Below are positions 18,736 to 64,000 of a stretch of DNA of 64,000 nucleotides, one piece after another. This DNA comes from Thermoplasmata archaeon (GTDB taxonomy: Archaea; Thermoplasmatota; Thermoplasmata; RBG-16-68-12; JAGMCJ01). The stretch's first letter is position 1; every line of letters starts with the position of its first letter. The notes beneath the pieces are model-generated. The model made no database searches and was not told where the DNA came from. It saw only the letters and a program-made list of their open reading frames with translations. The position numbers were made by a program, and so were the translations under genes. Location: contig JAGLRN010000069.1 of NCBI GenBank assembly GCA_023136265.1, forward strand, positions 8,680-72,679, read 5' to 3'.

Positions 18736-19875
18736 ATGAAAGGGAAGGTATTGGCAATCTTCGCGGTGACTTCGCTCGGATTCCTCTTCATTCCGCTCTC
18801 CATTTCTGAGCCAGCGGCCGCTTCTTCGGTGACTCTTTTCGAACCGACCGAGATTGAGAGCAGTTCACTGCGATTGCGTTATTCAGATCACCCATATCAG
18901 GAACCAGATCCTGACGGAGAGGGAATCTGCTATTTTGACGGGATGGAAGTTCACACATCAACCGTACCTAGTTTCGCACCAGGCTTGGACACTCGGTATG
19001 GAACCGCCTATGGCTCTGGATCGACTCGCGTGCATGGCCTGACGCCTTCCACAACTCACTACTTCAAGATCGTCGTATTGCACAGAAGTGGATATGGCCA
19101 GGGGGAACCTTCATGTTCTCTCGAGGGAGAAGCCTCAAATGAGGTCTCTGCGACCACCCTACCATCTGCGGTATACTTCCGGGAAGCTGTCGCCAATCCC
19201 GATAGGCCATGGGACACTCTTGATCTGTCCTGGAGAGCGAACAGGGACGTAGAGGGCTTCCAGAAATATGTCGTCGAACGCGCTTCTGCTGCGAATTTTT
19301 CGGATGCCATCACGGCAGCCACTATCGAGAATCAGGCAACGGAGCAGTATTCAATTCGCGGACTGTCACCATCCACCGCCTATTTCTTCAGAATAGCAGT
19401 CCACGCTACAACGGGAGAAACAAGTCTCTCATCTCTGATTGCCGCGACTACGGAAGATGTGCCAGATGTAATCGCGGTTTCGCTTTATGTACCCTTCAGT
19501 TCGGATGTCACACAAACCAGCGTCGGCCTGAGCTGGCATCACGCACATGATAGATATTGCGAGAAACATGTCATCGAAAGAGCCACATCACCTGATTTCA
19601 CTGGTTCTGTATCCATCATCGTGAAAGACTGCAACATCACGGAATACAACTGGGGAGGTCTGAAAGCTGGTACGAAGTACTACTTCAGAGTGGTATCACA
19701 CAACACTGCTGGCATCGAGGCAACATCCAACACCGTCACTGCAACCACGAGGTCTCAGTCGGTACCCGTGACTGAAATCGTGATTGCTGCGAATACCGTA
19801 ATCTTGGTCATGATCCTGCTGCTGGTCCTGATATCACTAATGAGGAAGAAGACCAAATCCGGCAAGCAAGAATAA
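18736..19875 (+). CDS. Surface protein with a signal peptide, three fibronectin type III-like domains and a C-terminal TM anchor
   Basis: Signal peptide MKGKVLAIFAVTSLGFLFIPLSISEPAAA. Three FN3-like blocks ending GLTPSTTHYFKIVV, GLSPSTAYFFRIAV and GLKAGTKYYFRVVS. C-terminal IVIAANTVILVMILLLVLISLMRKKTKSGKQE. The gene and its upstream region are visibly less GC-rich than the neighbours. Confidence 0.7.
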   Translation: MKGKVLAIFAVTSLGFLFIPLSISEPAAASSVTLFEPTEIESSSLRLRYSDHPYQEPDPDGEGICYFDGMEVHTSTVPSFAPGLDTRYGTAYGSGSTRVHGLTPSTTHYFKIVVLHRSGYGQGEPSCSLEGEASNEVSATTLPSAVYFREAVANPDRPWDTLDLSWRANRDVEGFQKYVVERASAANFSDAITAATIENQATEQYSIRGLSPSTAYFFRIAVHATTGETSLSSLIAATTEDVPDVIAVSLYVPFSSDVTQTSVGLSWHHAHDRYCEKHVIERATSPDFTGSVSIIVKDCNITEYNWGGLKAGTKYYFRVVSHNTAGIEATSNTVTATTRSQSVPVTEIVIAANTVILVMILLLVLISLMRKKTKSGKQE

Positions 19876-32253: not shown

Positions 32254-32254
32254 C

Positions 32255-33256: not shown

Positions 33257-33279
33257 CGGAAGGAAATCCGCACGGAAGG

Positions 33280-43730: not shown

Positions 43731-46700
43731 TCAGTCCTCCACGTCTTCGTCCGCCTCGTCTTCGGTCTCCTCTTGCGGGGGCTCCTTCTTCCTCCAGAAC
43801 ATAAGCAGGATCAGGAGTGTCGTGATCGCCAGCAACGCGATGAGGGCCGCCCAGAAGAGCGCGTCCTCGAATCCGCCTCCTTCTTCCGCCACCAGCGGGT
43901 TCGGGTCGTTGCCGTCCCTGATGCCGTCCCCGTCCGTGTCTGCGTCGTTGGGATCGGTCTCAATCGAATACTCCTGAAGATTCGACAGTCCGTCGCTGTC
44001 GGGATCGTCATCCGCTCCCTGGCTCAGGTCCCCGAAGTTCTCACCCTCCCAATCGTCCGGCAGTCCGTCATGGTCCGTGTCGTCTTGCGCGACAGCCACC
44101 GTGAACACCCACGCAACGACCGCTCTGTTGGGCGGGTCAACCAGGTCCTCGACCTCCAGGTAGACAGTGTACGTCCCGTCCTCCAAGGGCATGAGGAACG
44201 TGAGCGTTATCGCGCTCCCCGTCACCACGGCAGAGCCGGTGACGTCCGCCGAGGCGAGCTTCAGAGCCACGCTTGTCGTGTCGATCCCCGATGCATCGCT
44301 GTAGGTCGCGCTGATCGTCGGTGTGTTGTCGCTAAGCGTAGATCCGTTCACAGGCAGCATGTTCGAGATTGTCGGCGGGGACGTGTCAACCGTGAACTGC
44401 CAGGTCACTGTGGCGACGTTCTGCGGTGTCGACTGATCCTTCACTTCTAGGTAGACGTTGTGCGTGCCTTCCGAGAGGGCGCTCGCGGGCGTGTAACTCA
44501 TCGAATTCGCGGTCACCGTGGCCGAGGCAGTGACATCCACCGAGTCGACCTTCAGTGTGACGCTCGAAACGTCAATCCCAGAATCGTCGGTGTAGCTCGC
44601 ACTCACGAGGGGCTTCGTCTCCCCGATCGTCGCCAGATCGATGGGCTGCAGGTCGGTGATCGCCGGAGTCACTGTGTCCACTGTGAACCACCACGTCTCC
44701 GTCGCCTTGTTGCGGTTGGACGAGTCGTCCTCCACCTCCAAGAGCACGGTGTGAGTTCCTTCCGAGAGGGGGGCCATCGGAGTGTAAGTCACGCCCGAGG
44801 ACGTGACCGTCGCCAGTGAGGAGATGTCCACAGAATCGACTTCGAGGACAACGCTGCCCTCATCGATTCCGTTCTCATCGCTGTAGGTGGCCCCTATGAC
44901 TGGCGTGCTGTCGCTTACGGTCGACCCGTCAACAGGTTGCGCACCTGCTATCTCGGGTGGTGTCACGTCGAGCATGGTCGTGTCAATCGTGAAGTACCAG
45001 TTCTCTTCCGCAGGATTCTGGGGCGAGGAGGTGTCGCTGACCTCCACATGCACAGTGTGAATCCCGTTCGTGAGAGGAGCAATGGGAACGTACGTTGCCC
45101 CGCCAGAAGTCACGGTCGCGGACCCAGTAACGTCGACCGCGTCGACGACCACCCTGACGCTCGATAAGTCGATCCCGGTGGCGTCGTTGAAGCTCACGCC
45201 GATCGTCGGGGTCGTATCCGGGATGGTCGACATATGGGCGGGCTGAGCGTTCGAGATCACTGGAGGTAACGTGTCCACAGTGAACCACCAGGTCATCGTG
45301 GCGGTGTTCTGGGGCGTAGCCTGGTCCTTCACCTCAAGGTAGACATCGTGTATGCCTTCCGACAGAGAGCTGGGGACATAGACCACCTGATTCACGCCCA
45401 CAGCCGCGGATGCGGTCACGTCGATCGAGTCCACCAGGAGCACGACGCTCGCCAGGTCAATCCCCGAATCGTCCCCGTAGCTGGCGCCTATGGCGGGAGT
45501 GCTGTCACTGATCACAGACTGATCCGAGGGCTGCAAGTTCGATATGCTGGGTTCGACAGTATCTACAGTGAATGACCACGTCTCGGTCGCGATGTTCTGG
45601 CCTGGCGAGTCATCCGCGACCTCGAGATACACGCTGTGAACGCCCTCGGACAGAGGTGACGATGGCGTGTATGTCACATCCAAGAGAGTCACTGTCGCTT
45701 GAGCGGTGACGTCGAACCCGTCCACCCTGAGAAGGACGCTCGCGGTGTCTATCCCAGACACGTCGGTATAGCTCGCTCCTATCCCGGGTGTGCTGTCACT
45801 TACGATTGATAGATCGGCGGGCTGCAGGTCAGAAATCGTTGGCGGGTCCGGGTCGATGATGCTTGTGTCGATCGTGAACGACCACATCTTCTTCGCCACA
45901 TTGGCGGGAGAGGAGTTGTCAAGAACCTCAACGTAGACGTCGTGCGGTCCATCCGCCATTGGGGAGGGCACGAGATAGGTGACCCTGTCGAACTCCACCG
46001 TCGCCTGGGCGGTAACGTCCACCGAGTCCACTTCCAGCACAACGGTCGAGATGTCTATCCCAGACAGGTCGCCGTAGGATGCGCTTATCGTGGGTGTGTC
46101 GTCAGCTATCGTGGATTGATTGGCGGGCTGCGGGTCCGTGATCGTCGGGGGCAGCGTGTCCACAGCGAACCACCAGGCCCTCACGGCCACGTTCATTGGT
46201 GTGGAATTGTCACCCGCGTGGAGGCTCACGGTATGTGGCCCTTCTGAGAGGGGAGATGCAGGAGCATAGGCGATGTCGGAGAAGGTGATCGTGGAGCTGT
46301 TCGTCACGTCGACGCCGTCCACTTCCAGCAGCAAGTTCTGTGGAAAGATGGAGGAATCGTCACTGAAGTCCGCGCCGATGGTCGGCGTGTCGTCGCTTAC
46401 TATCGACTGATTGACGGGTTGCAGGTTGGTGATGTCCGGCGGGACCGTGTCAACAACGAACCACCAGGACTCTGTCGCGGTGTTCGGCGGTGAAGAAAGA
46501 TCCTCGATGTCAAGGTCGACCCAGTGAGGTCCTTCCGTCAAGGGCGCCGATGTGTACGTTATGCTCGTCCCGGTGACCGTCGCAGAGGCGGTCACATCCA
46601 CGGCGTCCAGTTGCAGCGTCACAGCGGATGAGTTGACTCCTGACGGATCTGTGTAGTTCGCTGCGATCCCGGGAGAATCGTCACTGATGATGGTCTTCCA

Positions 46701-48494
46701 TGGTCGGGGGTCCGCGATCTGCGGGGGCTGAGTGTCCACCGTGAACGACCACGACTCGGTCGCCAGGTTATGGATGAGTGAGGCGTCCCTGACCTCCAGG
46801 GAGACATCGTGAATGCCATCCGGCAGAGGAGGTGACGGCGTGTATGTCACATCCGAGGGAGTTACTGTCGCTTGAGCGGTGATGTCGAACCCGTCCACCC
46901 TCAGGACCACGCTGCCCGTGTCAATGCCTGACGCGTCGCTGTAGCTGGCACCTATCCCGGGCGTCGTGTCGCCTATTACCGACCCGTTGGCGGGCTGTAT
47001 GTCCGATATCACGGGCGGGTCCGTCTCGACGCCGATGATCGTGAACGACCCATTGCTCTTGTCCCAGTTCGTCTTGGCGGTCGAGTCGGTCACGTTCACC
47101 CTGACGTAGCAGTCCGCGGAGGGCGTGTTGTTGACCGTCCACAGATACGAGCCGTCGTTCGCCTCATCGTCACTGATCTCCGCATATGGCCCGAAGAGAC
47201 CGCTCACGGAGTATTCTATCCTGATAGTCAGAGGTGGCGTGCCGCCAGAAGCTGTCCAGTTGATGTAATGCTGCGTCAACGCGTCCCAACTCTCACCGCC
47301 GTTGGGCCCGTCAACTTCAACCGTCAGCGGTGGTGCGGTCTCGTCATTCTTCAGCACCCGAACTCCGAAGCCCTCGCCGGCCGCACCGATGTCCAGGTAC
47401 CCGTCACCGTCAATATCGCCCGCCGTTACGCCTATCACCGATCCAGTTGGAAGGCCCAGTGATGCATCGGTCCAGGAATCCCCTCCATCCCCCTTCCAGA
47501 TCTGAATCCCGCCGCTGGTGTACTTCGCTGTCAGGATGTCAGGGTATTTGTCCCCGACCATGTCGGCAAGAATGACGCCGTAGTAGGTACCAGTCGTCGG
47601 CAAGCCGCTGGAAGCCAGGGTCCAATTGCTCGTTCCGTCGCCAAGCCATGCGCGAAGGCCATGTCCGTCCTGATCCATCGCCGCAACGAGGTCCAAGTGT
47701 CCATCGAGGTTGAGATCCCCGAGCGTGACGCTGTTCCACTGATCGGTCCACGGGAGGCCGTTCGAGGCCTCGGTCCAGCCGCCCGTTCCATCTCCCAGCC
47801 AGACATGCATGCCCGCACCGGCGACGGCGAGGTCCGTATGATTGTCATGGTTCACATCGTCCATCCACACGCTGAAGTACTTCCCGGTCGTGGGCAAGTT
47901 GGTCGATGACTCGGTCCATGAGCCCGCTCCATTGCCGAGGTAGACCTCCACACCGCCGCCGTCGTTGGCGACGGCGAGGTCCAGATTATCGTCGTGGTTG
48001 ACATCCGCCAGGAATATCCCCGTGCGCATCGAGGTCGTCGGCAGACCAGTGTTGGCAAGGGTCCAAGTCCCTGCGCCGTCCCCGGTCCAAACGGAGACAC
48101 CGCCAGAACCGTAGGCGTAGTTCGTGGCCGCGATGTCCAGGTCGCCGTCGTTGTTTATGTCTCCCAGGAAAACGCCTCCGTCGTAGGCGTTGTCCGGCAG
48201 GCCGTTGGCGGCAAGCGTCCATGTTCCCGCACCGTCGCCCGTCCACACTTTCACACCGAAGTAGCCCGCGGTCGCGATGTCCAGGTTGGTATCATTGTTG
48301 ATATCACCGAACCAAACGGAGAAGTGGCTCTCACCCGACGGCAGACCGTTCGAAGCAGAGACAAAGCCCGTGACGGCAGGGCCATCGTCCTCGGAGGCTT
48401 CGACAAGAACGACCAGAAGTCCGTTGGCCATGAGTCCGGCGACGAGGACCGCCGCCATCAAGGATGAGAACGTGAATCGAAGCCTGCGATCCAT
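43731..48494 (-). CDS. Giant surface protein: a signal peptide, an FG-GAP/VCBS beta-propeller (about 6 blades), about 10 tandem Ig-like (Big-like) domains, thrombospondin-type-3-like Ca-binding repeats, and a C-terminal TM followed by an acidic tail
   Basis: Signal peptide MDRRLRFTFSSLMAAVLVAGLMANGLLVVLVEA, taken from the internal ATG with GGTGG SD (the listed ORF starts 24 codons earlier and would overlap the neighbouring gene). Propeller repeats GDINND(T/G)(N/D)LDIA...WTGDGAGTWT. The Ig-like repeat is TVDTQPPQI.N.QP...S..SD.TP.IGA.Y.D.SGID..SV.L.VD.VDVTA.ATVT...TY.P...L.EG.H.V.LEV.D. C-terminal DTDHDGLPDDWEGENFGDLSQGADDDPDSDGLSN...DTDGDGIRDGNDPN, then ALIALLAITTLLILLMFWRKKEPPQEETEDEADEDVED. 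Confidence 0.75.
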   Translation of the reverse strand: MDRRLRFTFSSLMAAVLVAGLMANGLLVVLVEASEDDGPAVTGFVSASNGLPSGESHFSVWFGDINNDTNLDIATAGYFGVKVWTGDGAGTWTLAANGLPDNAYDGGVFLGDINNDGDLDIAATNYAYGSGGVSVWTGDGAGTWTLANTGLPTTSMRTGIFLADVNHDDNLDLAVANDGGGVEVYLGNGAGSWTESSTNLPTTGKYFSVWMDDVNHDNHTDLAVAGAGMHVWLGDGTGGWTEASNGLPWTDQWNSVTLGDLNLDGHLDLVAAMDQDGHGLRAWLGDGTSNWTLASSGLPTTGTYYGVILADMVGDKYPDILTAKYTSGGIQIWKGDGGDSWTDASLGLPTGSVIGVTAGDIDGDGYLDIGAAGEGFGVRVLKNDETAPPLTVEVDGPNGGESWDALTQHYINWTASGGTPPLTIRIEYSVSGLFGPYAEISDDEANDGSYLWTVNNTPSADCYVRVNVTDSTAKTNWDKSNGSFTIIGVETDPPVISDIQPANGSVIGDTTPGIGASYSDASGIDTGSVVLRVDGFDITAQATVTPSDVTYTPSPPLPDGIHDVSLEVRDASLIHNLATESWSFTVDTQPPQIADPRPWKTIISDDSPGIAANYTDPSGVNSSAVTLQLDAVDVTASATVTGTSITYTSAPLTEGPHWVDLDIEDLSSPPNTATESWWFVVDTVPPDITNLQPVNQSIVSDDTPTIGADFSDDSSIFPQNLLLEVDGVDVTNSSTITFSDIAYAPASPLSEGPHTVSLHAGDNSTPMNVAVRAWWFAVDTLPPTITDPQPANQSTIADDTPTISASYGDLSGIDISTVVLEVDSVDVTAQATVEFDRVTYLVPSPMADGPHDVYVEVLDNSSPANVAKKMWSFTIDTSIIDPDPPTISDLQPADLSIVSDSTPGIGASYTDVSGIDTASVLLRVDGFDVTAQATVTLLDVTYTPSSPLSEGVHSVYLEVADDSPGQNIATETWSFTVDTVEPSISNLQPSDQSVISDSTPAIGASYGDDSGIDLASVVLLVDSIDVTASAAVGVNQVVYVPSSLSEGIHDVYLEVKDQATPQNTATMTWWFTVDTLPPVISNAQPAHMSTIPDTTPTIGVSFNDATGIDLSSVRVVVDAVDVTGSATVTSGGATYVPIAPLTNGIHTVHVEVSDTSSPQNPAEENWYFTIDTTMLDVTPPEIAGAQPVDGSTVSDSTPVIGATYSDENGIDEGSVVLEVDSVDISSLATVTSSGVTYTPMAPLSEGTHTVLLEVEDDSSNRNKATETWWFTVDTVTPAITDLQPIDLATIGETKPLVSASYTDDSGIDVSSVTLKVDSVDVTASATVTANSMSYTPASALSEGTHNVYLEVKDQSTPQNVATVTWQFTVDTSPPTISNMLPVNGSTLSDNTPTISATYSDASGIDTTSVALKLASADVTGSAVVTGSAITLTFLMPLEDGTYTVYLEVEDLVDPPNRAVVAWVFTVAVAQDDTDHDGLPDDWEGENFGDLSQGADDDPDSDGLSNLQEYSIETDPNDADTDGDGIRDGNDPNPLVAEEGGGFEDALFWAALIALLAITTLLILLMFWRKKEPPQEETEDEADEDVED
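44100..47030 (-). repeat. About 10 tandem coding repeats of roughly 300 nt (Ig-like domains) within the 43731 gene
   Basis: The periodic recurrence of the TVDTQPPQI...SGID...VDVTA.ATVT...EG.H.VYLEV.D motif is visible in the translation. Antisense ORFs in the track also show periodicity. Confidence 0.65.
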
Positions 48495-48507
48495 ATGACC
48501 ACCGTGT

Positions 48508-51500
48508 TTACTCCTCGTCCTGCTCCTCGGGTTCCTCTTCCTTTCTCCTTCTCCAGAACAGGACAACGAGCAGCATTAGGATTATGACAACAAGCAATAT
48601 CAGCACCCACCAGGGGAACTCACCAGATACTTCCTGAGAGGCGAACGTGATCGTGACCGTGTCCGTGTCGCTGTTCCCCGCGCGGTCCACGACCGTCAGC
48701 GTCACAACGTACACGTCCCTGTCCTCGAACGTGAATGAGGGTGTTGCATTGCTGAGCGTCCTGGTCGAGCCCCTGTATGTGAATGTCCACGTGTAGCTCA
48801 CTATCCCGCTCCCGATGGGTCCGTCGTCCGAGCCGCTTCCATCGAAGAGGATAGTGTCGCCCTTGCGGATCTCCACGTCGTCACCCGCATCGGCGATCGG
48901 CGGCGCGGTGTCCAGGAAGACAATGATGAGATTGATCTCCTCCTCGTTCCCCACGTTGTCTGTGCTCTTGTAGTAGATGTTGTGCGGGCCCTCGCTCATC
49001 GCTCCCGCGATCAGTGGCCCAGCATAGGTCGAGGGACAGTTCGGGTCGTCCACCCCGTAGCTGATCGAGCCCACGTCCGAGCCGTCATCCGTCGCGGTGA
49101 TGGCTATCGTCGCCAACGAGCTGCTGATATAGTTCGTGCTCACCGGGTCATATCCCGGCACAGAGCTCGTCGGCGGGGTTTCGTCCAGGAAGACGTACTC
49201 AATGACCTCGACTTCCTCGTTGCCGAGGTTGTCCATGCTCCTGAATCGTATCTCCCTCTGACCGTCATCCCCTGACACGGAGACCGATCCGGATATGAAC
49301 TGCGTCCAGTCCACCTCCGCGGTCCCGCCCTTGAAGATGGCGTACGACGTGGACGCCGCGCCGCTCCCCGCTCCGTCGTCGGCGGAGAAAGAAATCGGCG
49401 TCGATGATGTGATGAACGTAACGCCAGAGTCCGCGTGACTGGGCACACCAACCACGATGCTCGAGCTCGGCGGGGTGTTGTCCAAGTACACTGTCTCGAC
49501 CACCGCGTTCTCCTCGTTGTCGAGGACGTCGATGCTCTTGACCTGTATCTCCCTCAGCCCGTCGTCACCGGACAGGAGGACCGTTCCCGTCGAGTACGGA
49601 GTCCAATCCACCTCCACCGTGGCGCCCTTCATGACCCTGTATAACGTAGTCGTCGTGGTGCTCACGAAATCGTCCTTGTAGAACCTGACGGGAGTGAACG
49701 ACGTCATGTACGTGACGCCGGAATCCACGTGCTTCGGGTCCTCCACTGAGATGCTCGACACGGGCGGCGTGTTGTCCAGGTAGACCTCCATGGTCTTCGG
49801 GATCTCTTCATTCCCGTAATCGTCCACGCTCTTGTACTTGATAAACGTCAATCCGTCGCTCTTCGAGGTCGGAATCCAGAACTCGGACGTGTACTGACCG
49901 TATGCGGGCTCGGGTTCACCCGAGCTGTAGTACATGTACCAGATCGCCTCGATGCCAGCCGGGTCCTCCGCTGTCAGGCGGAACGACGTGAGAGAGCTGA
50001 CGTATGTCTCGCCCAGACCGCCAGTATAGTTGATTCCAAGAACCGCGAGTGAGGTCGTTGGAGGCGTCGCGTCAATGATGAATGACCACGACTCCGTCGT
50101 AACCCGCGTGTCGATGTCCGCCACGGACAGGAAGACGTCATGGGCCCCATCCGACAGAGGAGTCGAGGGCACATAGAGCACGCCGGTCTGCGTCACTGTC
50201 GCTTGCGCGGTCACGTCCACAGCATCGACCCTAAGAACAACGCTGCTCACATCGATGCCCGTGTCGTCGCTGTAGCTAGCACTTATGGCAGGCGTTGTGT
50301 CGCCTATCGTTGCCTGGTCGGCGGGCTGCAGGTTCGTTATCTCGGGCGGCTGAATGTCCACAGAGAACCACCATGTCTTCATGGCAACGTTCTGCGGATT
50401 GGAGTTGTCACCTACCGCCAGATAGACATCGTGAACGCCATCCGAGAGCGGCACGCTCGGAACATACGTGATCCCGCCAGAAGTCACAGTAGCGAGATGA
50501 GTGACGTCGACCGCATCCACCCTCATTGTCACGCTGGCGGTGTCTATCCCAGACAAGTCGATATAGCTCGCTCCTATCGTGGGCATCGTCTCGCCGACGG
50601 ACGACTCGTTCGCGGGCTGCAGGTTCGAGATGAGCGGCGACTGCGTGTCCACGGTGAAGGACCATATCTCAACGGCCACGTTCGCCGGTACGGCCTGATC
50701 GCCGACCTCCAGGCGGATGTTGTGCGTCCCTTCCGACAGGGCAATCGTCGGCGCATAGGTTACCATGTTGGGGCCTACGGTCGCCTGGGCCGTGATATCG
50801 ACTCCGTCGAGTTCGAGCAGCACGCTGGCCAAATCAATCCCGGAATCGTCGCTGTACATCGCGCTTATGTCAGGCGTGCTGTCGCCTGTCGTAGACTGAT
50901 TCGCAGGCAGAATATTGAATATCGACGGGTCGGTCGCATCCACCGTGAACGACCACATCTCGGTCGCCAGGTTCTGCGGCGCGGAGTTATCCTTCACCTC
51001 CAAGTAAGCGCTATGGATTCCATCCCAGAGGAGGATGCCTGGAACGTACGTGATGTCGCTCGCGGTAACCGTCGCGGAAGGCGTGACATTGATCCCATCC
51101 ACCTGGAAGAACACGCTGCCCACGTCTATCCCGGAAACGTCGCTGTAGTCCGCGCCTATGGCGGGCATTGCATCGCTGACGATCGATAGATGCGCTGGCT
51201 GCATGTTAGCTATCTGGGGAGGCTGGGTGTCCACCGTAAAGGACCAAGTCTCCATCGCAGTGTTCTGCGGCGCGGAGTTGTCCCCGACCTCTAGATAGAC
51301 GTTATGAGCACCTTCCGAGAGAGGACTCATCGGAACGTACGTGATGTCCGTGCCCGTCACGGTTGCGGACGCCGTCACATCGATCGCATCCACCCAGAGG
51401 GCGACGCTCGAAGTGTCGATTCCTGAGGGATCGCTGTAACTTGCACCCATAATCGGTGTCGCATCGCTCGTGAAGGAGCCATTGGCTGGCTGGAGGTTCG

Positions 51501-52698: not shown

Positions 52699-52775
52699 CG
52701 TTTCGCCCCGCCTCTCCCCTGTTAAGCCAGCAGAATGACAGTCTGGATAATAACGGACTATTAAAGTGCATCGTA

Positions 52776-55700
52776 TTAGAAACTTTCCAAACTCTCTTGC
52801 TCTTCTGGCGGCTCTTCAGGCTCTTCGGCAGTCCCGCCTCTTCTCCTACTCAGAATCAACATGGCAAAGAGGACTACGATGGCGATTGCGACGATCAATG
52901 GTATGAGAATCCACAGCCAATTGAACTGCTCAACGGACTCAGTCGTGCCGAAGGCCTCATCCGAATCTGGAGATTCATTTCCCCGTTTGTCCACTGCGGT
53001 CACGACATAGTAGTATGTCTTCCCGTTCTCTAACGGGGTGTCCAGGAATGTGGTTGTGCTTACCGGATTGTCATTGACCAATGTCTTCGGTCCTCCTGAC
53101 GAGGTCATCCTGTAGATGTTGTAGCCCGCCAAATCGGTCAGAGGAGATCCGTCTGTGTTGTTGGCGGGAGCGGTCCAGTTTAGGGAGAGGGTGCCTTCCT
53201 CATCGCCGGTTGTCACAATCAAATCTGTTGGTGCTGAGGGGCTCAGGGTGTCTGGATTGATCTCAATGATGAAGACAGCCGTCATGGCGACGTTGCCTTC
53301 CGTGTCCTCAGCCCAGACGAAGTAGCTCACGGACCCAGTGGAGTCCTGAGCGGGAATCTGATAGGTGTGGTTGTCTCCCGAGAGGGTCATCGTGTGATTG
53401 TGAGATGAACCGCCAACGTCCGTGAAGTTGAGATTGACCAAACTGACCTGCAGGTTGTCGGTGACAACCGCCTCGATCTGTATCGAATCGAGTACTATCG
53501 TGCTTGTCACGGGAATGTGAGAAATCGTGGGCGGTGTAGTATCCTCCATGACGAACTCACCTGGTGTGGATGCCCAATTGCCGAAGACATCCGTTGCGGA
53601 GATCGTGAGGCTGAACGTTCCCACATCCGAATAGCTACGATTGTGGTAGTATCGCCCCGCCAAAGAGTCGTAGTACATGGAGTAGTTGCCCACTCCGGTT
53701 ACGTCAATCCAGACGCCTTCAACACCACTAACATCCTCCACAACGGCGGATACGTTCACATAGCCGTGGACTTCCTGTGGGGAAGGATTGATGCGAACGT
53801 CGGAAATCGAGGGAGGAGTGAACAGGTGTGTGACGTTGAGACATGCCTCGCTGGAGGGGATGGACTCAATCGATGAGTCCTTTGCCGTGATGACATAGCA
53901 GTAGTCGCCGTTCGGGCCCAGACTTGGGTCGACAAAGGAAGTCCGAGGTGCTACTTCATCGATAAGCTGGTAGGGGCCTCCGCTCACAGAGGACCTGTAC
54001 ACGGCGTAGCCTTGGAGGTCAATCTCCTCGTTTGCCTTCCATGTGAGGGTTATGTTGGAATCTTGATTGAGAAAAGCGCGCAGTCCAAGGGGTCTGTCCG
54101 TCACAGTGTCAAAGAGCGAATAGACTTCCATGAACGACCAGAAGTTGTTGATTCCGCCTGGCATCTGCACCCAACCCTCAAAGCGGGTTTCATTGTAGAT
54201 CTCTATCGTCTCATATCGTAGGACTGGGATCAGAGGGACCTTCTCCGAGATGATTCCCAGCGCTTTCTTCACATGGGCAGCCCTCTCGGTCACGTTCAGG
54301 GCGTCATCTGCTTCCTGAAGAGCGAGGGACAGCTCCGCGTCGGCAAAGTTCACAATCTCCGCTATCGAGGAGATTCCACTCGGGTCCAAGGAGAGATGTC
54401 CAACGCCAAGATAGATATCGTGGTCTGCGGGATCAGCAGAGGAGTCAAGAACAGCGCTTGCGTTGAGTCCAGCCCACCATAGTCCCCCGGCCAACACTTG
54501 GGCTACAGTGGCTTTCAGAAGGTCGACCGCAAGCGACGGCCCCAAAACAGAGAGGGAGAGATTCTGTCCGTCAGGCTTCTCCCGCCAACCGTCGTCATCC
54601 ACATCGAAGTAGCCCGAAGCTTCCAGATGAGCTACTGCTGGGTATATGTTAGTGGCTTGCCAGCCATCTATGAAAGTATATCCGGCATTGAACTCCCGAA
54701 GGCTCGAATTGTACCAAGGGATGTTCCTGTTAGACATCACCGAATGCGCCATCCCCGAGAAGGGCTCAATCATCTCGAGCAGTTCCTTGTTCATCAACTT
54801 CGATATCGACAGCCTGAGATTGAGATCGTCGAGTGAGTTGCTCGCCTTGGGATTGAGACCGAAGTAGAGGTAATCCAGTCCCGGTGTAATCCTGACTGCT
54901 GCCTCCTCCAAAAGAAGAAGCATTCTTCCACCGATCCTGGGATCCGTGAGGTCTTGGGGTTCGAGTTCCCAGCCGATGAAGTCGATTGTTCCGTTTATGA
55001 ACGCATTCGCAGCCTCGTTGATGCCTGAGACACGGATGAAGTCGACACCTCCGACCATAGGACCTTCGGTGAAGTAATCTCGATATACCTCGACTAGGGT
55101 GTGAGCTGGGCTGTAGGAAATGAGTTCGAATGGACCGCATCCCTCAACGGGATTGATGTCACCGCTCTTCACCAACGGCATCAGGAGGCCAGTGGTCATG
55201 AACCTCCCTCCGCCACCCGCAGAGAAGTCGAAGTATACCGACGTCGGGGAAATCACCGTGACATCGTATCCTCCGTAGAACTCCTCGAATGTGTATCTGA
55301 CATCGTCTGCAGTGACCGGAGAACCATCGTGCCACTTGGCCTCCGGTCTGAGTGCGACGGTTATGAGACCTGACACATCGTCTGCTGACCAACTGCTGGC
55401 CACCCACGGAACGATCTCAAGAGTGTTCTGATCTCTCCTTCCGAGTGAGTCGTAGAGAAGGTCGATGATTCTCTTGCTTGTAGGATTCGAGGCCAACCGT
55501 GGGTCGGGTTCAACGTCCTCCATCACCGCGACCTTCATGACTTCTGGCGATTCTTCCAAAGGTATCTCTTCACCAGGGGGCGGTGGGTCGACGTACAGAA
55601 CAAGATGCGGTGCTTGTGAATCAAGGGGATGTGTAATGGCGTTGACGCCATCTGAACCCTGGATGTAGTAATTCACTGAGGATTGGGAAATCGCGCTGCC

Positions 55701-57449: not shown

Positions 57450-57528
57450 TCAGATGAGAAACGAGGGAGAGGGTCGCTTGTCTGGAGGAGGAAGTGCAGG
57501 GGCCGATTCTTGTGCCAGAAGGAGTGCG

Positions 57529-59793
57529 GTTATGTCCGCTTTGATTCTCCTCATACTCATCCTGGCTTCGCAGTCTCCACAGCTGTCCTCGTCCTCAAGG
57601 GATCCCCGTCCGAATTGGGATGGCCCCATCAACGACGTCAACAACGCCCAATACGTCAACTTCACGAACCCCTCGTGGAACTGGACCGCGTGGTTCCACA
57701 ACGTCTCGTTCCCGCAGGGCTCGTGGGAAAAGATTGAGCTCACGTTGACGCTAATCAACCACGGCGACCCGTGGGACAGAGCCAACATCGTTGGGGTCAA
57801 CTCTGTCATCCTCCTGGAGATGACGACCAAGGAGAACGGCACGGTCCTCATCAATCCCGTCCAGACGTTCACGAAGGACGTTACGATATACGCGAACCTG
57901 TTCAACGAATCGGCATCGGTCTACTGGTCTGGAATGCCCAACTTCGACGGTGGCTGGAACTGCAGCCTCAGCTTCGCCTTCTATCCAGGAACGCCTCCGT
58001 TCGTCCTGCCAGAGATCGTGCCTGCCATATTCCATCGGCACTTGAGCGCGTCGAACACGACGAGCGTCAACGTTACGTTCCCGCCAGGCATAACGTCCGC
58101 CAAGGCTGTCCTCATCGAGAGGGGGGGCTCCGCCGAGGAGTTCTGGTTCGCGAACGTGCCGCCCACGGTGAGGGACTTCACGCTCGACGTGAACGGGACG
58201 AGGGTCTTCGACATCACGGGCTATCCGTTCTTGAACTCGGGTGCCTGCCTGAACCCGCCAAACTGCTGGACGCTCTACGAATGGAACGGCACTCCCCCGC
58301 CCGGGACGGGTCTGAGACCGCAGTTCGAGATCGACATCTCGCCCTACGTGTCACTGCTCAATGGAACCCAGCCCATCACGTTCAGCGTCGGGAACGGGGG
58401 GAACTACTGGAAGATCAGCCTCTCGTTCTTCATCTGGAGGAATCCCCGCCTGACGGCCTACATCCTGGACGCCTCCTCGTTCTACAGGAGCGCCACGAGC
58501 TCCGTGCAGTACCTCGAATCGAGCTCGACAGCCCATAGACCAGTGGCCAACGGGGTGGAGACCGTCGAGGTCGCTTACAAGGCATGGCTCAACGGCAGCT
58601 TCCCTGACGTTACCGCGCACTCCATCGCGACCGTCTCGCGGACGATCACTTCCTCGACCGTGACAGTCCACTTGGACGAGAAGGAGGAGATCTTCCACAA
58701 CGTCACGAGGGACGGGTCCGGCGCGGGCGATGTAACATACATCATCAGGCACTCCAACACGACGACCTCCTTGGGGAACGGGCAGGACTACGTCAGAATA
58801 GACAACCACTCTTCGTTCAACTTCATCGACGGCGACAACGGTGGGCGGGCCTCCGTTCAAACGCGGCTGTGGAGCGACTACAGCTATGGAGACTACACGA
58901 ATCTGGGGATCTCGTGGGAGCGCACGTCGCTGCTATGGCATAACCGTACGTCCTCGTTCGGCACGGGAGTTGACGAGCCGCAGTACCTGTATGAGGATTT
59001 GAGGGGGGCGGCGCATCCTTTCCCCGCCATACTCTTCGTCGAGCCCGCCCGCGACAGCGAGGTGGGCGACACGATGACCGTCTTCGACTTCGTCTTCGCG
59101 GATGACAACATTGTGAATGCTTCCCTCTCAATTGGTAATGCCACGTATGACATCTCTGGTGCACAGAGCTTCACGTGGAACTCCACGGCCGCGTACGGAC
59201 CCTATTTCACAGCGAACGCGAGCGCGACGAATGTCATCAACGTCACGAGTCACAACGAGCTCCCGCTCAGGGGAACGAAGTGGCGCTTCGCGATGAACTT
59301 CACGGTGGCGGACCTGGGATGGCACTTCATCTCGGTCCCGATCCCGCTGACCGACGACTCGGTCGAGAACGTCCTCTCCTCGATAGACGGCAAGTACAAC
59401 GCCCTGCGCTACTACGATGCATCGGACCCGGGCGACAGATGGAAGACCTATCACACCTTCAAGCCCTATCGGGACCTGTTGTCAATCGACTCACGAACGG
59501 GCTTCTGGATAAACATAACGGCACCCGCCAATCTCGATATCATCGGCCCACTCCCGAACGTCACGTCGATCCTCCTGCGCAAGGGTTGGAACATGGTGGG
59601 CTTTCCGTCTCTTGCTGATGGCTACACTGTCTCAGACCTGATGGCGGACACGGGCGCGATGAGTGTGGAGGGATACGCGGATGCACCGCCGTACCATTTG
59701 GCGGAGCTTCCGGGCAGCCATGTCATGAGACAGGGAGAGGGGTACTGGATCCAGCTTCCAGCGAACGCGGACTGGTTTGTCCCATCCGTCTAG
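57529..59793 (+). CDS. Secreted N-glycosylation-sequon-rich protein carrying the shared C-terminal module of about 150 aa
   Basis: Signal peptide MSALILLILILASQSPQLSSSS. More than 30 N-x-S/T sequons. The C-terminal GWHFISVPIPLTDDSVENVL...RYYDASDPGDRWKTYH...GFWINIT...LLRKGWNMVGFPS...GEGYWIQL is homologous to the C-termini of the 7759 and 60391 products. The listed ORF begins at 57421; the start at 57529 is preferred on the basis of the signal peptide and SD. Confidence 0.65.
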   Translation, partial: VMSALILLILILASQSPQLSSSSRDPRPNWDGPINDVNNAQYVNFTNPSWNWTAWFHNVSFPQGSWEKIELTLTLINHGDPWDRANIVGVNSVILLEMTTKENGTVLINPVQTFTKDVTIYANLFNESASVYWSGMPNFDGGWNCSLSFAFYPGTPPFVLPEIVPAIFHRHLSASNTTSVNVTFPPGITSAKAVLIERGGSAEEFWFANVPPTVRDFTLDVNGTRVFDITGYPFLNSGACLNPPNCWTLYEWNGTPPPGTGLRPQFEIDISPYVSLLNGTQPITFSVGNGGNYWKISLSFFIWRNPRLTAYILDASSFYRSATSSVQYLESSSTAHRPVANGVETVEVAYKAWLNGSFPDVTAHSIATVSRTITSSTVTVHLDEKEEIFHNVTRDGSGAGDVTYIIRHSNTTTSLGNGQDYVRIDNHSSFNFIDGDNGGRASVQTRLWSDYSYGDYTNLGISWERTSLLWHNRTSSFGTGVDEPQYLYEDLRGAAHPFPAILFVEPARDSEVGDTMTVFDFVFADDNIVNASLSIGNATYDISGAQSFTWNSTAAYGPYFTANASATNVINVTSHNELPLRGTKWRFAMNFTVADLGWHFISVPIPLTDDSVENVLSSIDGKYNALRYYDASDPGDRWKTYHTFKPYRDLLSIDSRTGFWINITAPANLDIIGPLPNVTSILLRKGWNMVGFPSLADGYTVSDLMADTGAMSVEGYADAPPYHLAELPGSHVMRQGEGYWIQLPANADWFVPSV

Positions 59794-59815
59794 CGTCTCA
59801 CTGCCCCTTCGCCGA

Positions 59816-60130
59816 TCAGAACATGTCCTTCAGCATCGTCTTCGAGTCCGTCACCTGCTTCTCTTCCACGGCGGCGCTGAGAAGGTACCTGTCCTTGACG
59901 AAACTGGTGGTCGGTCCGGAGATCACGTACTCGTACAGCCTCGCGGAGGGGTACACTGTCACCTTGTCATCCTCGAACACCGCCATCGTCTCGTGCGAAG
60001 AGAAGAGGTACACGTTCTCGTGCGTAATGAAATCCAGGTCATCGACCTTCCCGCCCTCCTTGTGCTTGTAGAACGTAACCCTGTCGACCCTAGCCCGCTC
60101 CATGAACTCTTCCTCGGTTATCTTAGCCAT
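59816..60130 (-). CDS. Hypothetical cytoplasmic protein (104 aa)
   Basis: Clean ORF with SD AAGGTGGA 6 nt upstream of the ATG. No recognisable motif. Confidence 0.45.
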   Translation of the reverse strand: MAKITEEEFMERARVDRVTFYKHKEGGKVDDLDFITHENVYLFSSHETMAVFEDDKVTVYPSARLYEYVISGPTTSFVKDRYLLSAAVEEKQVTDSKTMLKDMF

Positions 60131-60390
60131 CGGTTTTCCACCTTGCTCCCCAACGTCTCAAGCGGTAGATAATCCATTCGTTTATGGTGGTTTCTGCGGG
60201 TGCCGCTTCCCCGCTCTGCCCACCTCGGACGTCCTGTGGTCTGCCCATCCACCCAGCCAAAGGGTCCCGTCCATAACTATAAATGTCCGCGACAATTTGT
60301 GGCATTCAGCATCTGGCGGGGTCTTTCACCTGCGCTGGGGGGTCGAAGATGGAGCATAGTCGATGTTTGTCCGATGTGGGCATTGTTGTG

Positions 60391-63300
60391 ATGATTGTAA
60401 CCGTACTTGTTGTCTCTCTCTGTGGGACGATTTCAACCGTGACCGAGAGGGATGAATTGCTGGGGACCGACGTAACCACAAGTGTTCGTTCGGACCAGGT
60501 CGGAGATACACTTCCCTTTGATGTCATTCAAGAGATCTCCGCGCAGATAACAGTACCTGCTGGAAGGGAGTACTACGTCGTCTACGACAGCGCGAGTCAG
60601 ACCCTGACGGAGATCCCGATAGCCAGCCCCACGTTTGGGTTCCCGCAGAGCGCCTTGGACGCGATCGACAGAAGCCCGAACTGGATCAAGGACAACCTCA
60701 CCCGCAAGTTCGAGCAAATGGCGGATGAGCCCATACAGGTACAAGGCTTCGCGGCGCCCGCCTTCGCGGACCTCGATGCCGATGGCGATCTGGACCTCGT
60801 CGTCGGGACGGAGAACGACGGGCTCAAGTACTTCGAGAATGTCGAAGAAGGACTGCATTACTACGAGGCCTATGACGTCTATGTCGGAGGCGTTCTTGTC
60901 TCAAACGACTCGATGTTTGGAGCCCTTGCCCTGACAAGGGCGGACCCGGCAGTTACGGACCTGGACGGCGACAACGACCTTGACATCCTCATCGGCGTCA
61001 GCAACGGCGTCTGGTTCCTTACGAACCTCGGCACCCCGCAGGCGCCTTCCTGGAGTAGCATCCAGTCGACGAGCATACCTCTCCAGTACAGCTCGATTGA
61101 TGTGGGGGACGTGGATGCGGACGGGGACCCCGACCTCGTCATCGGCGATCAGGAAGGGAAGCTGTACCTCTCAGAGAACCTCGCGTCTAACCCGCAATAC
61201 ATCTCTGACGGCAACCCCGCAACCGTGACCACTTCGGCCTTCGCGACGATCGTGAATCTCGCTCTTGACGTGGGTGACTACGCGAGCCCCGCACTTGCTG
61301 ACGTGGACGCTGACGGGGACCTGGACATGGTGTCAGGCAACCTGGCCGGAGAGCTGAGCTTCCACGAGAACATCTGGGACCCCACGAGCCCCAACTGGGC
61401 GCCCAACGACCCGACCGTGTTCGAGAACCTCGACATCGGGGACAACAGCGTGCCCACGTTCGCGGACGTGGACCTTGACATGCTTCCAGAGATTGTGATA
61501 GGGGACGAGGACGGGAAGGTCCACTACCTGCCAAATGTGGGGACCGCGTCGAATCCGTTGTTCCTCGTTTGGGACAACGTTCCCACGACGTTCTACCAAT
61601 GGTCCAATCGCGACTACTACTACATCGATGACTCGGATGTCCTTCTCAAGGAAAGGACGATTCCCGCCAGAATGATAGACTACGCCAACCTGATAAACTC
61701 CGTCCCGGACCACATGGTCGATGAGCTTGCCTTCTCGATCGCCAACACCGCAACGGCATCACTGATGCACAGCTCTACTTATCCCGACGCGTACAGGAAC
61801 AACACGGAGGCCCTCTACTACAACGACATGTTCATCGACTACGCGGACATCCTCGACCTCGTTGACGCTGCCACCGGGGACCGCTACTCCACATTGAGAT
61901 ACTGGGTCAATGAGAGCGGAACTAGAGTGGCGTACATCGTTCCCAGGGATGTCTACTACTGGAACCTCGCCCATCCGAGGGTCTCCTACGAGTTGCCGAC
62001 GTTCATCAACCCGAACGTGGTGACCAATCTCCACGGAGGCGCTGCCGCTCCTCCCGCGGGGAAATTCTGGCGGTGGTATCTCTTCAACGAGAACGATACT
62101 GTCTGGCCTGCGGATCCTGGGAGCGTCAAGTACCCGAAGGACGAAGGCCCTCCTTTGCTGAAAGAGAAACTGGCGGGAGTGACGACCGCGTGGAACGTGA
62201 CCAATCACATCTCGCCGGCCGGCTACGGCAACGACGGTCACAACAACTCGAGGCCTTGGAACTACAGCGACCACGCGGTCGAGAAGGTCAGCCACTGGGT
62301 CAGCCTCACGCTTGCTCTGAACGTTGCCGAGCACAACGACGGGAACAGGCCGAGGCAGCCCGTCAGGATAGCTCACGAGCACAACGGCAACTGCGGAGAG
62401 CTATCCGATCTGACCGCGGCGGCCTTCAGGGCGGCCCTTATCCCAGCATATGGGGTGATGAGCATGGCGGAGGATCACTGCTGGAACGAGTTCTGGCATA
62501 ACGGTTGGCATCACCATGACAACTACTGGAGCAACTCCGCATCGATCATCGGGAACAACGACTTCAAGCACTACACGCCTGGATGGAACAGGGACTGGAC
62601 TGCGATATATGGTTGGAAAGGAGACACTAGGGTGACGAACCACATCAACACGTACCATCACGAGGAGGATCACAACGGCGATGGATTCCAGGACAGGGGT
62701 AACGTCAGCGTCAAGGTTGTTGATTCGGCAGGCAATCCTATTGATGGAGCCAAGGTTTCGATTGCAGGGTGGAGCTTCGGCCCACCCTATACTAACATTG
62801 GCGACTTCTCCACATACACGGGCCCGGATGGCGTGGCGTTCTTCACCACCAGCGAGGCCCGCCAGAACGACACCTTCGATGACGGCATCCAGATAGACGT
62901 CAGCAGCAAGTTCGGGGGCGGCTCGCTGAACCAGGGCTACGCCAACAGGTTCAAGATATGCATCGACCCGCCAAATCTCCCTCTGTACAGCTATCAGTAT
63001 CAGGTGAGCGACACCGTGCCCCGGCCTTGGCTGGAGGCGAACGTGGTTGCGCCGCCGCAGGGGGAGGGGTATTGGCTGGATGTGGACTTTGATGTGCAGT
63101 TCGGTATCCAGCACCCGCTCGCGGATGCGACGTCCCACGCCGATGACCAGGTCAATGGTGACAGGGTCGCCCATCCCGAGTACTTCTGGGACAACATCAC
63201 ACTGGATACATTCATCGCGGACGAGCAGAACTTCCAGAAATATGTCAGAGGGGAGGCATTCGATTCCACCAATCTCTCGTTGAATGTCTCTTCCGGCAGC

Positions 63301-64000
63301 GTGTTCCTCGGCCTCCCCTTGAGCGGGAACTGGTACTTCGTGCTCTCGAACAGGGATTCGCTGGAGACGAAGAAGCTCGTGAACGTCACCATCAGGCTGA
63401 TAGAGGACCTGCGTCCAGGGGCACCCCACATCACAAGAGGGGCATTCACTGGTGTCTCACAGGAGGATATCACGCTGACTTGGGAGAGGAGCACTGACGA
63501 CGGACAGGGCGAGGATGATATCCTCGCGTACACCGTGCACAGGGCGCTTGACTACCACGGACCGTACTCGGTGGTGGACACGGTTGCGGCGGATGGTCGC
63601 CTTTACTACAACTGGACCGATCCCGGACTGGGAATCGGGGATCTGACGGACTACTTCTACTATATTGTGTGTCACGACAACCTCTCGGTGATGAGAAGCC
63701 CGGAGACGGTGGGCAAAGTGGTCCAGTACATGTACCCCGGTGCGAACCTGCTCTCGGTTCCTGTGTATACGGAGGACGACAGCGTTCCGGGGGTCCTGGC
63801 GACCGTTGGATTCAACGAGGTCAGGCTGTACGATGCGAGCGATGCTGGCGACCCGTGGAAGTCCTACCACAAGGCCAAATACATCAACGACCTGCAGGGA
63901 ATCCACCCGCTCGACGGCATATGGGTCAATGCTCTCTCCGAGGGGAACCTGACGGTTATCGGTCTGATCCAACCTTACCACTCGGTCGATCTGGAGCAGG
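60391..64000 (+). CDS. Giant secreted protein, partial (runs off the window): a signal-anchor, an FG-GAP/VCBS beta-propeller, a transglutaminase-like Cys-His-Asp core, beta-sandwich domains, and the shared C-terminal module
   Basis: Signal-anchor MIVTVLVVSLCGTIST. FG-GAP blades (FADLDADGDLDLVVGTENDG, TDLDGDNDLDILIGVSNG, GDVDADGDPDLVIGDQEG, ADVDADGDLDMVSGNLAG, ADVDLDMLPEIVIGDEDG). The transglutaminase-like core is GNCGELSDLTAAAFRAALIPAYGVMSMAEDHCWNEFWHNGWHHHD. The end of the window reads NLLSVPVYTEDDSVPGVLATV...RLYDASDAGDPWKSYH...GIWVN.... It is not in the ORF track because there is no stop within the window. Confidence 0.7.
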   Translation, partial: MIVTVLVVSLCGTISTVTERDELLGTDVTTSVRSDQVGDTLPFDVIQEISAQITVPAGREYYVVYDSASQTLTEIPIASPTFGFPQSALDAIDRSPNWIKDNLTRKFEQMADEPIQVQGFAAPAFADLDADGDLDLVVGTENDGLKYFENVEEGLHYYEAYDVYVGGVLVSNDSMFGALALTRADPAVTDLDGDNDLDILIGVSNGVWFLTNLGTPQAPSWSSIQSTSIPLQYSSIDVGDVDADGDPDLVIGDQEGKLYLSENLASNPQYISDGNPATVTTSAFATIVNLALDVGDYASPALADVDADGDLDMVSGNLAGELSFHENIWDPTSPNWAPNDPTVFENLDIGDNSVPTFADVDLDMLPEIVIGDEDGKVHYLPNVGTASNPLFLVWDNVPTTFYQWSNRDYYYIDDSDVLLKERTIPARMIDYANLINSVPDHMVDELAFSIANTATASLMHSSTYPDAYRNNTEALYYNDMFIDYADILDLVDAATGDRYSTLRYWVNESGTRVAYIVPRDVYYWNLAHPRVSYELPTFINPNVVTNLHGGAAAPPAGKFWRWYLFNENDTVWPADPGSVKYPKDEGPPLLKEKLAGVTTAWNVTNHISPAGYGNDGHNNSRPWNYSDHAVEKVSHWVSLTLALNVAEHNDGNRPRQPVRIAHEHNGNCGELSDLTAAAFRAALIPAYGVMSMAEDHCWNEFWHNGWHHHDNYWSNSASIIGNNDFKHYTPGWNRDWTAIYGWKGDTRVTNHINTYHHEEDHNGDGFQDRGNVSVKVVDSAGNPIDGAKVSIAGWSFGPPYTNIGDFSTYTGPDGVAFFTTSEARQNDTFDDGIQIDVSSKFGGGSLNQGYANRFKICIDPPNLPLYSYQYQVSDTVPRPWLEANVVAPPQGEGYWLDVDFDVQFGIQHPLADATSHADDQVNGDRVAHPEYFWDNITLDTFIADEQNFQKYVRGEAFDSTNLSLNVSSGSVFLGLPLSGNWYFVLSNRDSLETKKLVNVTIRLIEDLRPGAPHITRGAFTGVSQEDITLTWERSTDDGQGEDDILAYTVHRALDYHGPYSVVDTVAADGRLYYNWTDPGLGIGDLTDYFYYIVCHDNLSVMRSPETVGKVVQYMYPGANLLSVPVYTEDDSVPGVLATVGFNEVRLYDASDAGDPWKSYHKAKYINDLQGIHPLDGIWVNALSEGNLTVIGLIQPYHSVDLEQ

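Follow-up and report, generated by a model that had tools for sequence, protein, structure and literature searches.

An island of five large genes is found at positions 43731-64000 of a 64,000-nucleotide stretch from a Thermoplasmata archaeon (assembly GCA_023136265.1, contig JAGLRN010000069.1; the whole stretch is referred to as the window). Three of these genes lie in series on the minus strand (giants 1 to 3) and two on the plus strand (giants 4 and 5). The proteins encoded by giants 1-3 end in a hydrophobic helix, a cluster of basic residues and a short acidic tail rich in Glu, Asp and Pro. It is rather likely that giants 1-3 are type I membrane proteins, which are held by a stop-transfer anchor and possess a disordered acidic cytoplasmic tail with an electrostatic role, and that this tail is not a sortase signal.

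Giants 1-3 would be exported by the Sec pathway, driven by the N-terminal signal-like segment, and the C-terminal hydrophobic helix would act as a stop-transfer anchor, which halts translocation. The three to four Arg/Lys residues after the helix would hold this end in the cytoplasm according to the positive-inside rule and could bind lipid head groups. The remaining 10-20 residues may form a short, proline-broken, disordered acidic tail that is kept on the cytoplasmic face and for which charge and length would outweigh sequence. Such a tail could offset the polybasic cluster; it would be repelled by the anionic inner leaflet, so that it projects into the cytoplasm, and it may offer an acidic handle of low specificity. 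A mainly electrostatic role is suggested because composition and length of the tail are kept in the absence of a motif. Furthermore, the same position is taken up by a zinc ribbon in some related proteins and by a Pro/Gln-rich stretch or a conserved terminal peptide in others, which argues for an exchangeable cytoplasmic slot rather than for a recognition signal of a protease or sortase.

Anatomy of the C-termini

Translation of the three minus-strand genes yields the tails letter for letter as they were quoted in an earlier, sequence-only reading of this DNA (Table 1). The anchor helices reach values of 2.7-3.4 in the best 19-residue Kyte-Doolittle window and are directly followed by RKK, RRRK or RRR. 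A stretch of 20, 14 and 23 residues, most of which are acidic, is located after the helix of giants 1, 2 and 3, respectively, which bears out the earlier description of the tails as longer and more acidic than archaeosortase-type signals. Downstream of the basic cluster, Asp and Glu make up 11 of 17 (giant 1), 8 of 10 (giant 2) and 8 of 20 residues (giant 3), i.e., 40-80%, and Pro is also present. Eleven cytoplasmic enzymes encoded in the window contain on average 14.4% Asp+Glu and 12.4% Lys+Arg, thereby excluding a generically acidic proteome as the cause; compared with the background of 14.4%, the acidity of the three tails has binomial P values of 3e-6, 6e-6 and 5e-3 (giants 1, 2 and 3, respectively). 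A greedy search for open reading frames (ORFs) gave 46 calls in the window; of these, only giants 1-3 and one subunit of carbon monoxide dehydrogenase (CODH) have an Asp/Glu content of 40% or more over their last 20 residues. A triplet-repeat artefact was rejected since the tail DNA has mixed codons and is not a slippage-prone repeat. The tail codons at the junction between giants 2 and 1 were also considered as a ribosome-binding site; however, GAGGAG is too distant from the ATG, and the tails found elsewhere would be left unexplained.

The acidic tail had been attributed to all five giants, but it is present on giants 1-3 only; giants 4 and 5 lack a helix at their end and finish with a different module, which they share. 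The tail is also not generic for the membrane proteins encoded here, since two other C-terminally anchored secreted proteins of the window, a papain-like giant and an fn3 protein, have different ends (Table 1). None of the multi-pass proteins of the window carries an acidic tail, and an acidic C-terminus occurs in one soluble protein only. A NosD/beta-helix protein encoded just outside the window ends in a helix followed by KRRKKEES. The helices of giants 1, 2 and 3 are preceded by GGGFEDALFW, SGEFPWW and VEQFNWLW, respectively. An aromatic cluster is located on the outer side of the anchor helix (43863-43880, 48613-48624 and 52920-52935) and can also be found in many other proteins with this tail style.

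Topology and zinc-ribbon variants

Giants 1-3 are built like type I proteins (bitopic, N-out/C-in): their N-terminal segments are hydrophobic, and each has one strong helix at the C-terminus with basic residues after it. They share with generic bitopic type I anchors the putative N-terminal export signal, the single C-terminal helix, aromatics at both interfaces and the basic cytoplasmic side; however, they differ in the Asp/Glu-rich stretch, which starts 3-5 residues past the helix and recurs across the lineage.

At least five other Thermoplasmata contigs carry giants 2 and 1 as a syntenic pair, with flanking genes that differ from those in the window. The giant-2 orthologues (L008:9413-12277, L009:9578-12676, L011-L015) are 49-54% identical to giant 2 over the full length, and their helix is followed by a KRRKKDEEP-type stretch and a CxxC..CxxC pattern, in a tail of the type KRRKKDEEPKAE...C-x2-C-x10-13-C-x2-C. 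The corresponding zinc-ribbon matches in Pfam are sub-threshold (Zn_Ribbon_1, 24.3 bits with a cutoff of 25; Zn_ribbon_3, 17.5 bits with a cutoff of 27), and the giant 2 of the window has no zinc ribbon. The same layout of helix, charged linker and zinc ribbon is also found in many unrelated matches of the tail profile described below. Zinc ribbons are typically cytoplasmic elements, and their presence in the giant-2 orthologues as well as the positive-inside pattern suggest a cytoplasmic location of the tail, which would be retained there. Judged by these sequence features, the tail of giants 1-3 is probably cytoplasmic.

Evolution of the tail among homologues

A C-terminal helix is present in 70 of the 120 best homologues of giant 1. 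About 45 of these helix-anchored homologues carry an acidic tail of 13-53 amino acids (mostly 17-30), the tail is Pro/Gln-rich in 14 and short and only basic in 3 proteins, and the rest are mixed. In an alignment of 29 close giant-1 homologues, the tail is 43% identical where the ectodomain is 79% identical, and further comparisons gave 39% vs. 69% and 16% vs. 47%; the acidity persists. Some close homologues (P0006, P0009 and P0020) lack the acidic part, and others have a Pro/Gln-rich tail instead. Composition and length of the tail are conserved but the sequence drifts, a pattern typical of disordered regions under charge constraint. A survey of 80 metagenome loci for C-terminally anchored proteins yielded few informative additions, since the loci were mostly distant FG-GAP relatives or short contigs and many of the ORF calls were spurious. 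A smaller group of FG-GAP giants ends in QSEQ[IM]-COOH.

Distribution of the tail style

A tail profile of 49 positions was built from 40 helix-plus-tail sequences. In a local test, such tails scored 20-36 bits, compared with <12 bits for other C-terminal anchors, and a search among 1.84 billion representative proteins retrieved 280 proteins at E<=1e-3. From the best 150 of these 280 proteins, 46 long proteins were scanned with Pfam, whose profile match lies within ~130 residues of the C-terminus and mostly at the very end. They carry 94 Pfam families, including PKD (16), Big_5 (10), Big_7 (10), NosD/Beta_helix (9) and CarboxypepD_reg (7), and FG-GAP_3 is found in only 2 of them. Few matches bear names; these include a NosD protein from Thorarchaeota, two Thermoplasmata proteins and a TIGR02543-family repeat protein, which is presumably bacterial. 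The occurrence of the tail style on unrelated ectodomains, which had been noticed earlier, is thus seen in giant 3, in the nearby NosD/beta-helix protein and in the 46 scanned matches. Given this spread, the tail style is an anchor type that recurs on surface proteins unrelated to each other and is restricted neither to the island nor, probably, to the lineage.

Alternative explanations

Several points weigh against a stop-transfer anchor with a mainly electrostatic tail. The topology of giants 1-3 and the retention of their tails are predictions, and the 280 matches were obtained with a profile of low information content, while the null model of HMMER is imperfect for queries consisting of a helix plus low complexity. 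Homologues of giant 3 with an overall identity of 88-89% have a tail that is 100% identical to that of giant 3. In a sister subfamily of giant-1 homologues (P0060-P0098), the acidic tail ends in a nearly invariant ESDD[VIA][QE][TP]-COOH, which is conserved on a par with folded domains, and the middle of the tail varies. Both observations hint at a sequence-specific constraint in some tails, and the ESDD[VIA][QE][TP]-type terminal peptide could be a short linear motif that a cytoplasmic partner recognises. Furthermore, a general survey of bitopic proteins reports a depletion of acidic residues at the cytoplasmic flank of the anchor helix (PMC5525207). Strong acidity so near the helix is therefore not the default and may point to a specific function, which keeps the idea of partner binding alive.

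Partner binding is the main rival explanation. The acidic tail could be a specific cytoplasmic docking motif, which links the giants to an intracellular partner or holds giants 1 and 2, which are co-transcribed, together by their tails; the basic-Pro-acidic tails of integrin alpha would be a parallel. Apart from the identical giant 3 tails and the conserved terminal peptide, the synteny of the giant 2 - giant 1 pair points in this direction, as do the zinc-ribbon variants, which show that the slot can house a folded cytoplasmic element, and the recurrent tail start [RK]n-E-E-P or E-P-P, which resembles the tails of integrins alphaIIb and alphaV. However, the tails are barely alignable within the clade of the window's giant 1, the three close homologues without the acidic part manage without it, and no conserved cytoplasmic neighbour gene was seen, with flanks of the orthologous pairs that differ from those in the window. 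In addition, this composition is found on about a hundred ectodomain types in several lineages, which a generic property fits better than one partner. A specific docking motif is therefore rather unlikely. A broader version of this idea, which is more doubtful still, assumes a modular cytoplasmic adaptor slot with an acidic, ESDDVQT-type, Pro-rich or zinc-ribbon tail, through which Thermoplasmata and some of the Asgard archaea would couple adhesins to intracellular partners, a prokaryotic equivalent of signalling through integrin tails; in this version, the syntenic giants 2 and 1 would form a two-chain receptor.

It is less likely that the tail is functionless, i.e., a neutrally drifting low-complexity extension, with the helix and the basic cluster as the sole selected element. 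The fast divergence of the tail, its length of 9 to 53 amino acids and its loss or low-complexity replacement in close homologues would be in line with drift, but the acidity persists across lineages with <20% tail identity and is maintained against the background of 14%. Moreover, the tail DNA is free of slippage-prone repeats, and tail lengths mostly cluster at 17-30 amino acids. Cytoplasmic flanks are otherwise depleted of acidic residues according to the survey cited above (PMC5525207). Neutral drift is thus quite improbable as an explanation, and processing by a sortase-type enzyme, which is discussed in the next section, is also considered less likely than partner binding.

Comparison with known sorting signals

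The three tails (E<=10) and ten similar tails of other proteins (E<=1) were compared with NCBIfam, and none of the models PGF-, PEF-, Heimdall-, Loki-, GG_III-, JDVT- and GlyGly-CTERM reaches its cutoff on any of them. On this closer comparison, a PGF- or PEF-CTERM motif is not recognisable, in agreement with the sequence-only reading. Even at E<=10, PGF-CTERM (TIGR04126) has no match on the three tails, and Pro-Gly-Phe is absent before the helix. PEF-CTERM (TIGR03024) has no match on giant 2 despite the presence of GEFPWW and scored 15.9 bits in a similar tail elsewhere, with a cutoff of 23. Heimdall-CTERM scored 12.0 bits on giant 1, with a cutoff of 24, and Heimdall-CTERM, Loki-CTERM and GG_III-CTERM all stay under their cutoffs on the ten similar tails. 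Only LPXTG_anchor (TIGR01167) marginally passes on giant 2 (16.6 vs. 15.9 bits); however, the match covers model positions 6-33, i.e., the helix and the basic part, and an LPXTG motif is absent from giant 2. No conserved motif precedes the helix among the 70 helix-anchored giant-1 homologues; a loose aromatic pattern recurs at this site ([DE][WYF]xW, DWWW and sometimes [GE]FPW). An archaeosortase-like gene was found neither in the 64-kb window nor in the ~10-kb flanks of the source scaffold, and literature searches on archaeosortases in Thermoplasmata and on FG-GAP/integrin-like archaeal tails gave nothing about an acidic tail.

The C-termini of giants 1-3 have two features in common with PGF-CTERM, PEF-CTERM and related archaeosortase/exosortase signals: secreted archaeal surface proteins carry them at their very end, and in both a hydrophobic helix leads into a cluster of Arg/Lys. 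In contrast to these signals, they possess no signature motif or model match, continue with 10-20 strongly acidic residues past the basic cluster, are extended by a zinc ribbon in orthologues and give no evidence of processing. Gram-positive LPXTG tails also have a C-terminal helix and a positively charged tail, and the TIGR01167 match of giant 2 covers this part only, but giant 2 belongs to an archaeal host without sign of sortase A. It is very unlikely that helix and tail together form a dedicated sorting signal, which an as yet unknown enzyme of archaeosortase-like or rhomboid-like type would remove before the protein is attached to lipid or to the surface: the layout of aromatics ([DE][WYF]xW, [GE]FPW), helix and basic cluster is superficially tripartite and the sub-threshold CTERM matches are faintly suggestive, but the residues before the helix are not conserved, the tail drifts fast, its acidic part is lost in close homologues, and known signals stop at the basic cluster, whereas the tails studied here run 10-50 residues further and in some cases take in a zinc ribbon, in favour of a tail that is retained in the cytoplasm. 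Of the functions proposed earlier, a dedicated sorting signal thus finds no support, and an anchoring role is supported for the helix and the basic cluster.

Two other types of C-termini were observed in the course of these comparisons. Three surface proteins of 735-962 amino acids (L051:12193-15081, L084:6048-8255 and L087:2071-4761) end in a helix followed by Y[KR][ST]GRI-COOH, a short and conserved end that resembles a true sorting signal far more closely than the acidic tails. Giant-1 FG-GAP homologues of ~1800 amino acids (P0036, P0037, P0043, P0046, P0047 and others, one of which is named Chloroflexota) lack a C-terminal helix, and their conserved end reads ...[KR]IYLP[LV][VI]x[KR]xx-COOH, which could be an unrecognised bacterial C-terminal signal.

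Likeness to integrins

The gross order of giant 1, in which an FG-GAP beta-propeller is followed by a long Ig-like stalk, a single helix and a short tail of basic-Pro-acidic type, is similar to that of integrin alpha, and integrin alphaV is among the structural matches of the giant 1 propeller (E 2.3e-9, template modelling (TM) score 0.48). The tails of integrins alphaIIb and alphaV read KRNRPPLEEDDEEGE and KRVRPPQEE, respectively; a literature search on integrin tail sequence found no paper. However, the top match of the propeller is CRTAC1 and not an integrin, Pfam finds an Integrin_alpha2 leg domain in none of the five giants, and the juxtamembrane sequence of giant 1 is FWRKK and not GFFKR. 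The island also lacks a beta-subunit-like partner bearing a vWA/betaI domain, as judged by Pfam for the five giants. Membership of giant 1 in the integrins was rejected on these grounds; giant 1 resembles integrin alpha in architecture only.

Domain architecture of the giants

Giant 1 consists of an N-terminal signal-like hydrophobic segment, an FG-GAP beta-propeller, 9-10 Ig-like repeats of ~97 amino acids, TSP3-like Ca-binding repeats, the helix and the tail, with Pfam matches to FG-GAP_3 (3e-33), Big_13 (7.5e-33) and Big_5. The propeller region contains six strict matches to DxNxDxxxD and a seventh Ca-loop-like motif recognised by eye (DMVGDKYPD). In an AF2 model, residues 40-520 have a pLDDT of 90.8, and CRTAC1 is retrieved as the top match in the PDB with an E-value of 5e-17. 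In giant 2, a signal-like N-terminus is followed by 7 Ig-like repeats, four OmpL47-type barrels (barrel_OmpL47, 1.6e-25), PKD, the helix and the tail. Giant 3 possesses a signal-like N-terminus, a PPC-like domain, one Big_13-like module, an embedded SBP_bac_5 solute-binding domain and fn3, followed by helix and tail. The ectodomains of the three proteins had been described as non-homologous; however, giants 1 and 2 are paralogous (46-47% identity over ~890 amino acids of the ~97-amino-acid Ig-like repeats), and giant 3 alone shows little relation to either of them.

Giant 4 has a PNGaseA-like domain (Pfam PNGaseA, 2.7e-12), is rich in N-x-S/T sequons (3.2 per 100 amino acids) and has neither a C-terminal helix nor an acidic tail. 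Giant 5, which also has no C-terminal helix, consists of an N-terminal helix, FG-GAP repeats, a transglutaminase-like core and a C-terminal two-repeat module. The domains listed for the island in the sequence-only reading were confirmed: Pfam finds FG-GAP, Big_13/Big_5, PKD, fn3, SBP_bac_5, Transglut_core and PNGaseA, and the TSP3_bac match of giant 1 lies just under the cutoff (24.1 bits, cutoff 25). From their predicted domains, the proteins of the island would fit the proposed role in adhesion or surface remodelling. The PNGase A-like giant 4 and the transglutaminase-core giant 5, both of which are predicted to be extracellular, together with SBP_bac_5 of giant 3 suggest capture and processing of glycoproteins or peptides and not pure adhesion.

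The two-repeat module of giants 4 and 5

Giants 4 and 5 share a C-terminal module of ~155 amino acids, which contains two repeats and is also present in the papain-like giant (Table 1). The module of giant 4 is 45% identical to that of giant 5 and 40% identical to that of the papain-like giant. The module shared by these proteins has the consensus GWNLVGYPS...GxGYWI...W.VP. It has no match in Pfam or NCBIfam, and its sequence homologues are all unnamed. An AF2 model of moderate confidence (pLDDT 78.9) is mostly beta, and this fold has no match in the PDB (best E 0.05, TM <=0.3). In the giant 3 homologue P0124 (67% identical), the module replaces helix and tail, and many helix-less giant 1 homologues also end in it; in the papain-like giant, module and helix occur together. 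It is conjectured that the module is probably an alternative means of cell-surface retention or a protein-protein docking unit.

Layout of the island

The gap between giants 3 and 2 comprises 77 nt, the stop codon of giant 2 is separated by 13 nt from the start of giant 1, and giant 3 starts with TTG. Public gene calls set the starts of giants 1, 3, 4 and 5; for the plus-strand giants 4 and 5, they replace the earlier assignments 57529 and 60391, respectively. The C-terminus of giant 5 was read by completing the gene from the source scaffold. With 1587+1396+1513+750+1286 = 6532 amino acids, the island encodes more than 6500 amino acids, as estimated before.

Table 1. Coordinates of the giants, their C-terminal elements and comparator proteins in the window
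Feature	Position	Strand	Basis or remark
Giant 1, 1587 aa	43731..48494	-	translation; public gene call of 1587 aa, start 48494
Giant 1 C-terminal transmembrane helix, ALFWAALIALLAITTLLILLMFW	43794..43862	-	hydropathy 2.72
Giant 1 tail, RKKEPPQEETEDEADEDVED	43734..43793	-	translation; basic cluster, then acidic Glu/Asp/Pro stretch
Giant 2, 1396 aa	48508..52698	-	translation
Giant 2 transmembrane helix, WWVLILLVVIILMLLVVLFW	48553..48612	-	hydropathy 3.37; GEFP just before
Giant 2 tail, RRRKEEEPEEQDEE	48511..48552	-	translation
Giant 3, 1513 aa	52776..57317	-	translation; public gene call, start 57317
Giant 3 transmembrane helix, WLWILIPLIVAIAIVVLFAMLILS	52848..52919	-	hydropathy 3.33
Giant 3 tail, RRRGGTAEEPEEPPEEQESLESF	52779..52847	-	translation
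Giant 4, 750 aa	57541..59793	+	translation; public gene call, start 57541
Giant 4 C-terminal two-repeat module, ~155 aa	59317..59790	+	GWxxxSVP...DxWKxY...GxWIN, then GWNMVGFPS...GEGYWIQL...W.VP
Giant 5, 1286 aa in full	60349..64000	+	public gene call, start 60349; last ~70 aa beyond the window
Giant 5 two-repeat module	from 63739 to 64000	+	continues in L091:16199-16666
Papain-like giant, 1601 aa (comparator)	7759..12564	+	two-repeat module, then C-terminal helix, only FRRH and stop after it
Papain-like giant two-repeat module	11896-12360	+	
fn3 protein, 379 aa (comparator)	18736..19875	+	C-terminal helix, basic non-acidic tail RKKTKSGKQE and stop

Implications and genomic surroundings

Tails of this kind should not be filed as archaeosortase-type signals during annotation, and the proteins carrying them should be treated as membrane-anchored type I surface proteins. 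The aromatic interface, the helix, the polybasic cluster and the Glu/Pro-rich tail form a recognisable anchor style, which is not covered by a curated model and which recurs on surface proteins of Thermoplasmata and some Asgard archaea with many ectodomains. If it is true that the acidic tail or its variants bind cytoplasmic partners, this would provide a handle on how wall-less or S-layer-poor archaea connect giant adhesins and enzymes to the cell interior. The most promising leads are the ~155-amino-acid C-terminal module and the tail variants with a zinc ribbon or a conserved terminal peptide. For sediment Thermoplasmata, a lifestyle based on the scavenging of detrital proteins has been proposed (PMC6461988). 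Judged by gene content, the PNGase A-like, transglutaminase-like, surface-tethered solute-binding and nearby papain-like proteins would fit such a lifestyle.

The same proteins were found on scaffolds of South China Sea cold-seep metagenomes and in the metagenome-assembled genome GCA_030634705.1; they and their homologues are labelled Thermoplasmata or Thermoplasmatota. The remainder of the window encodes the 1601-amino-acid papain-like surface protein, a CODH/acetyl-CoA synthase (ACS) cluster and a serine hydroxymethyltransferase (SHMT)-GcvT fusion. The CODH/ACS (Wood-Ljungdahl) cluster (22222-35184) comprises a CooC-like ATPase, Prismane/CODH, ACS with ACS_CODH_B_C, two CdhD-type subunits, a DUF166 protein and a RACo-type reductive activator. 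In the fusion, SHMT and a glycine-cleavage T-protein (GCV_T) domain are combined in one ORF of 1219 amino acids on the minus strand (14750-18409).

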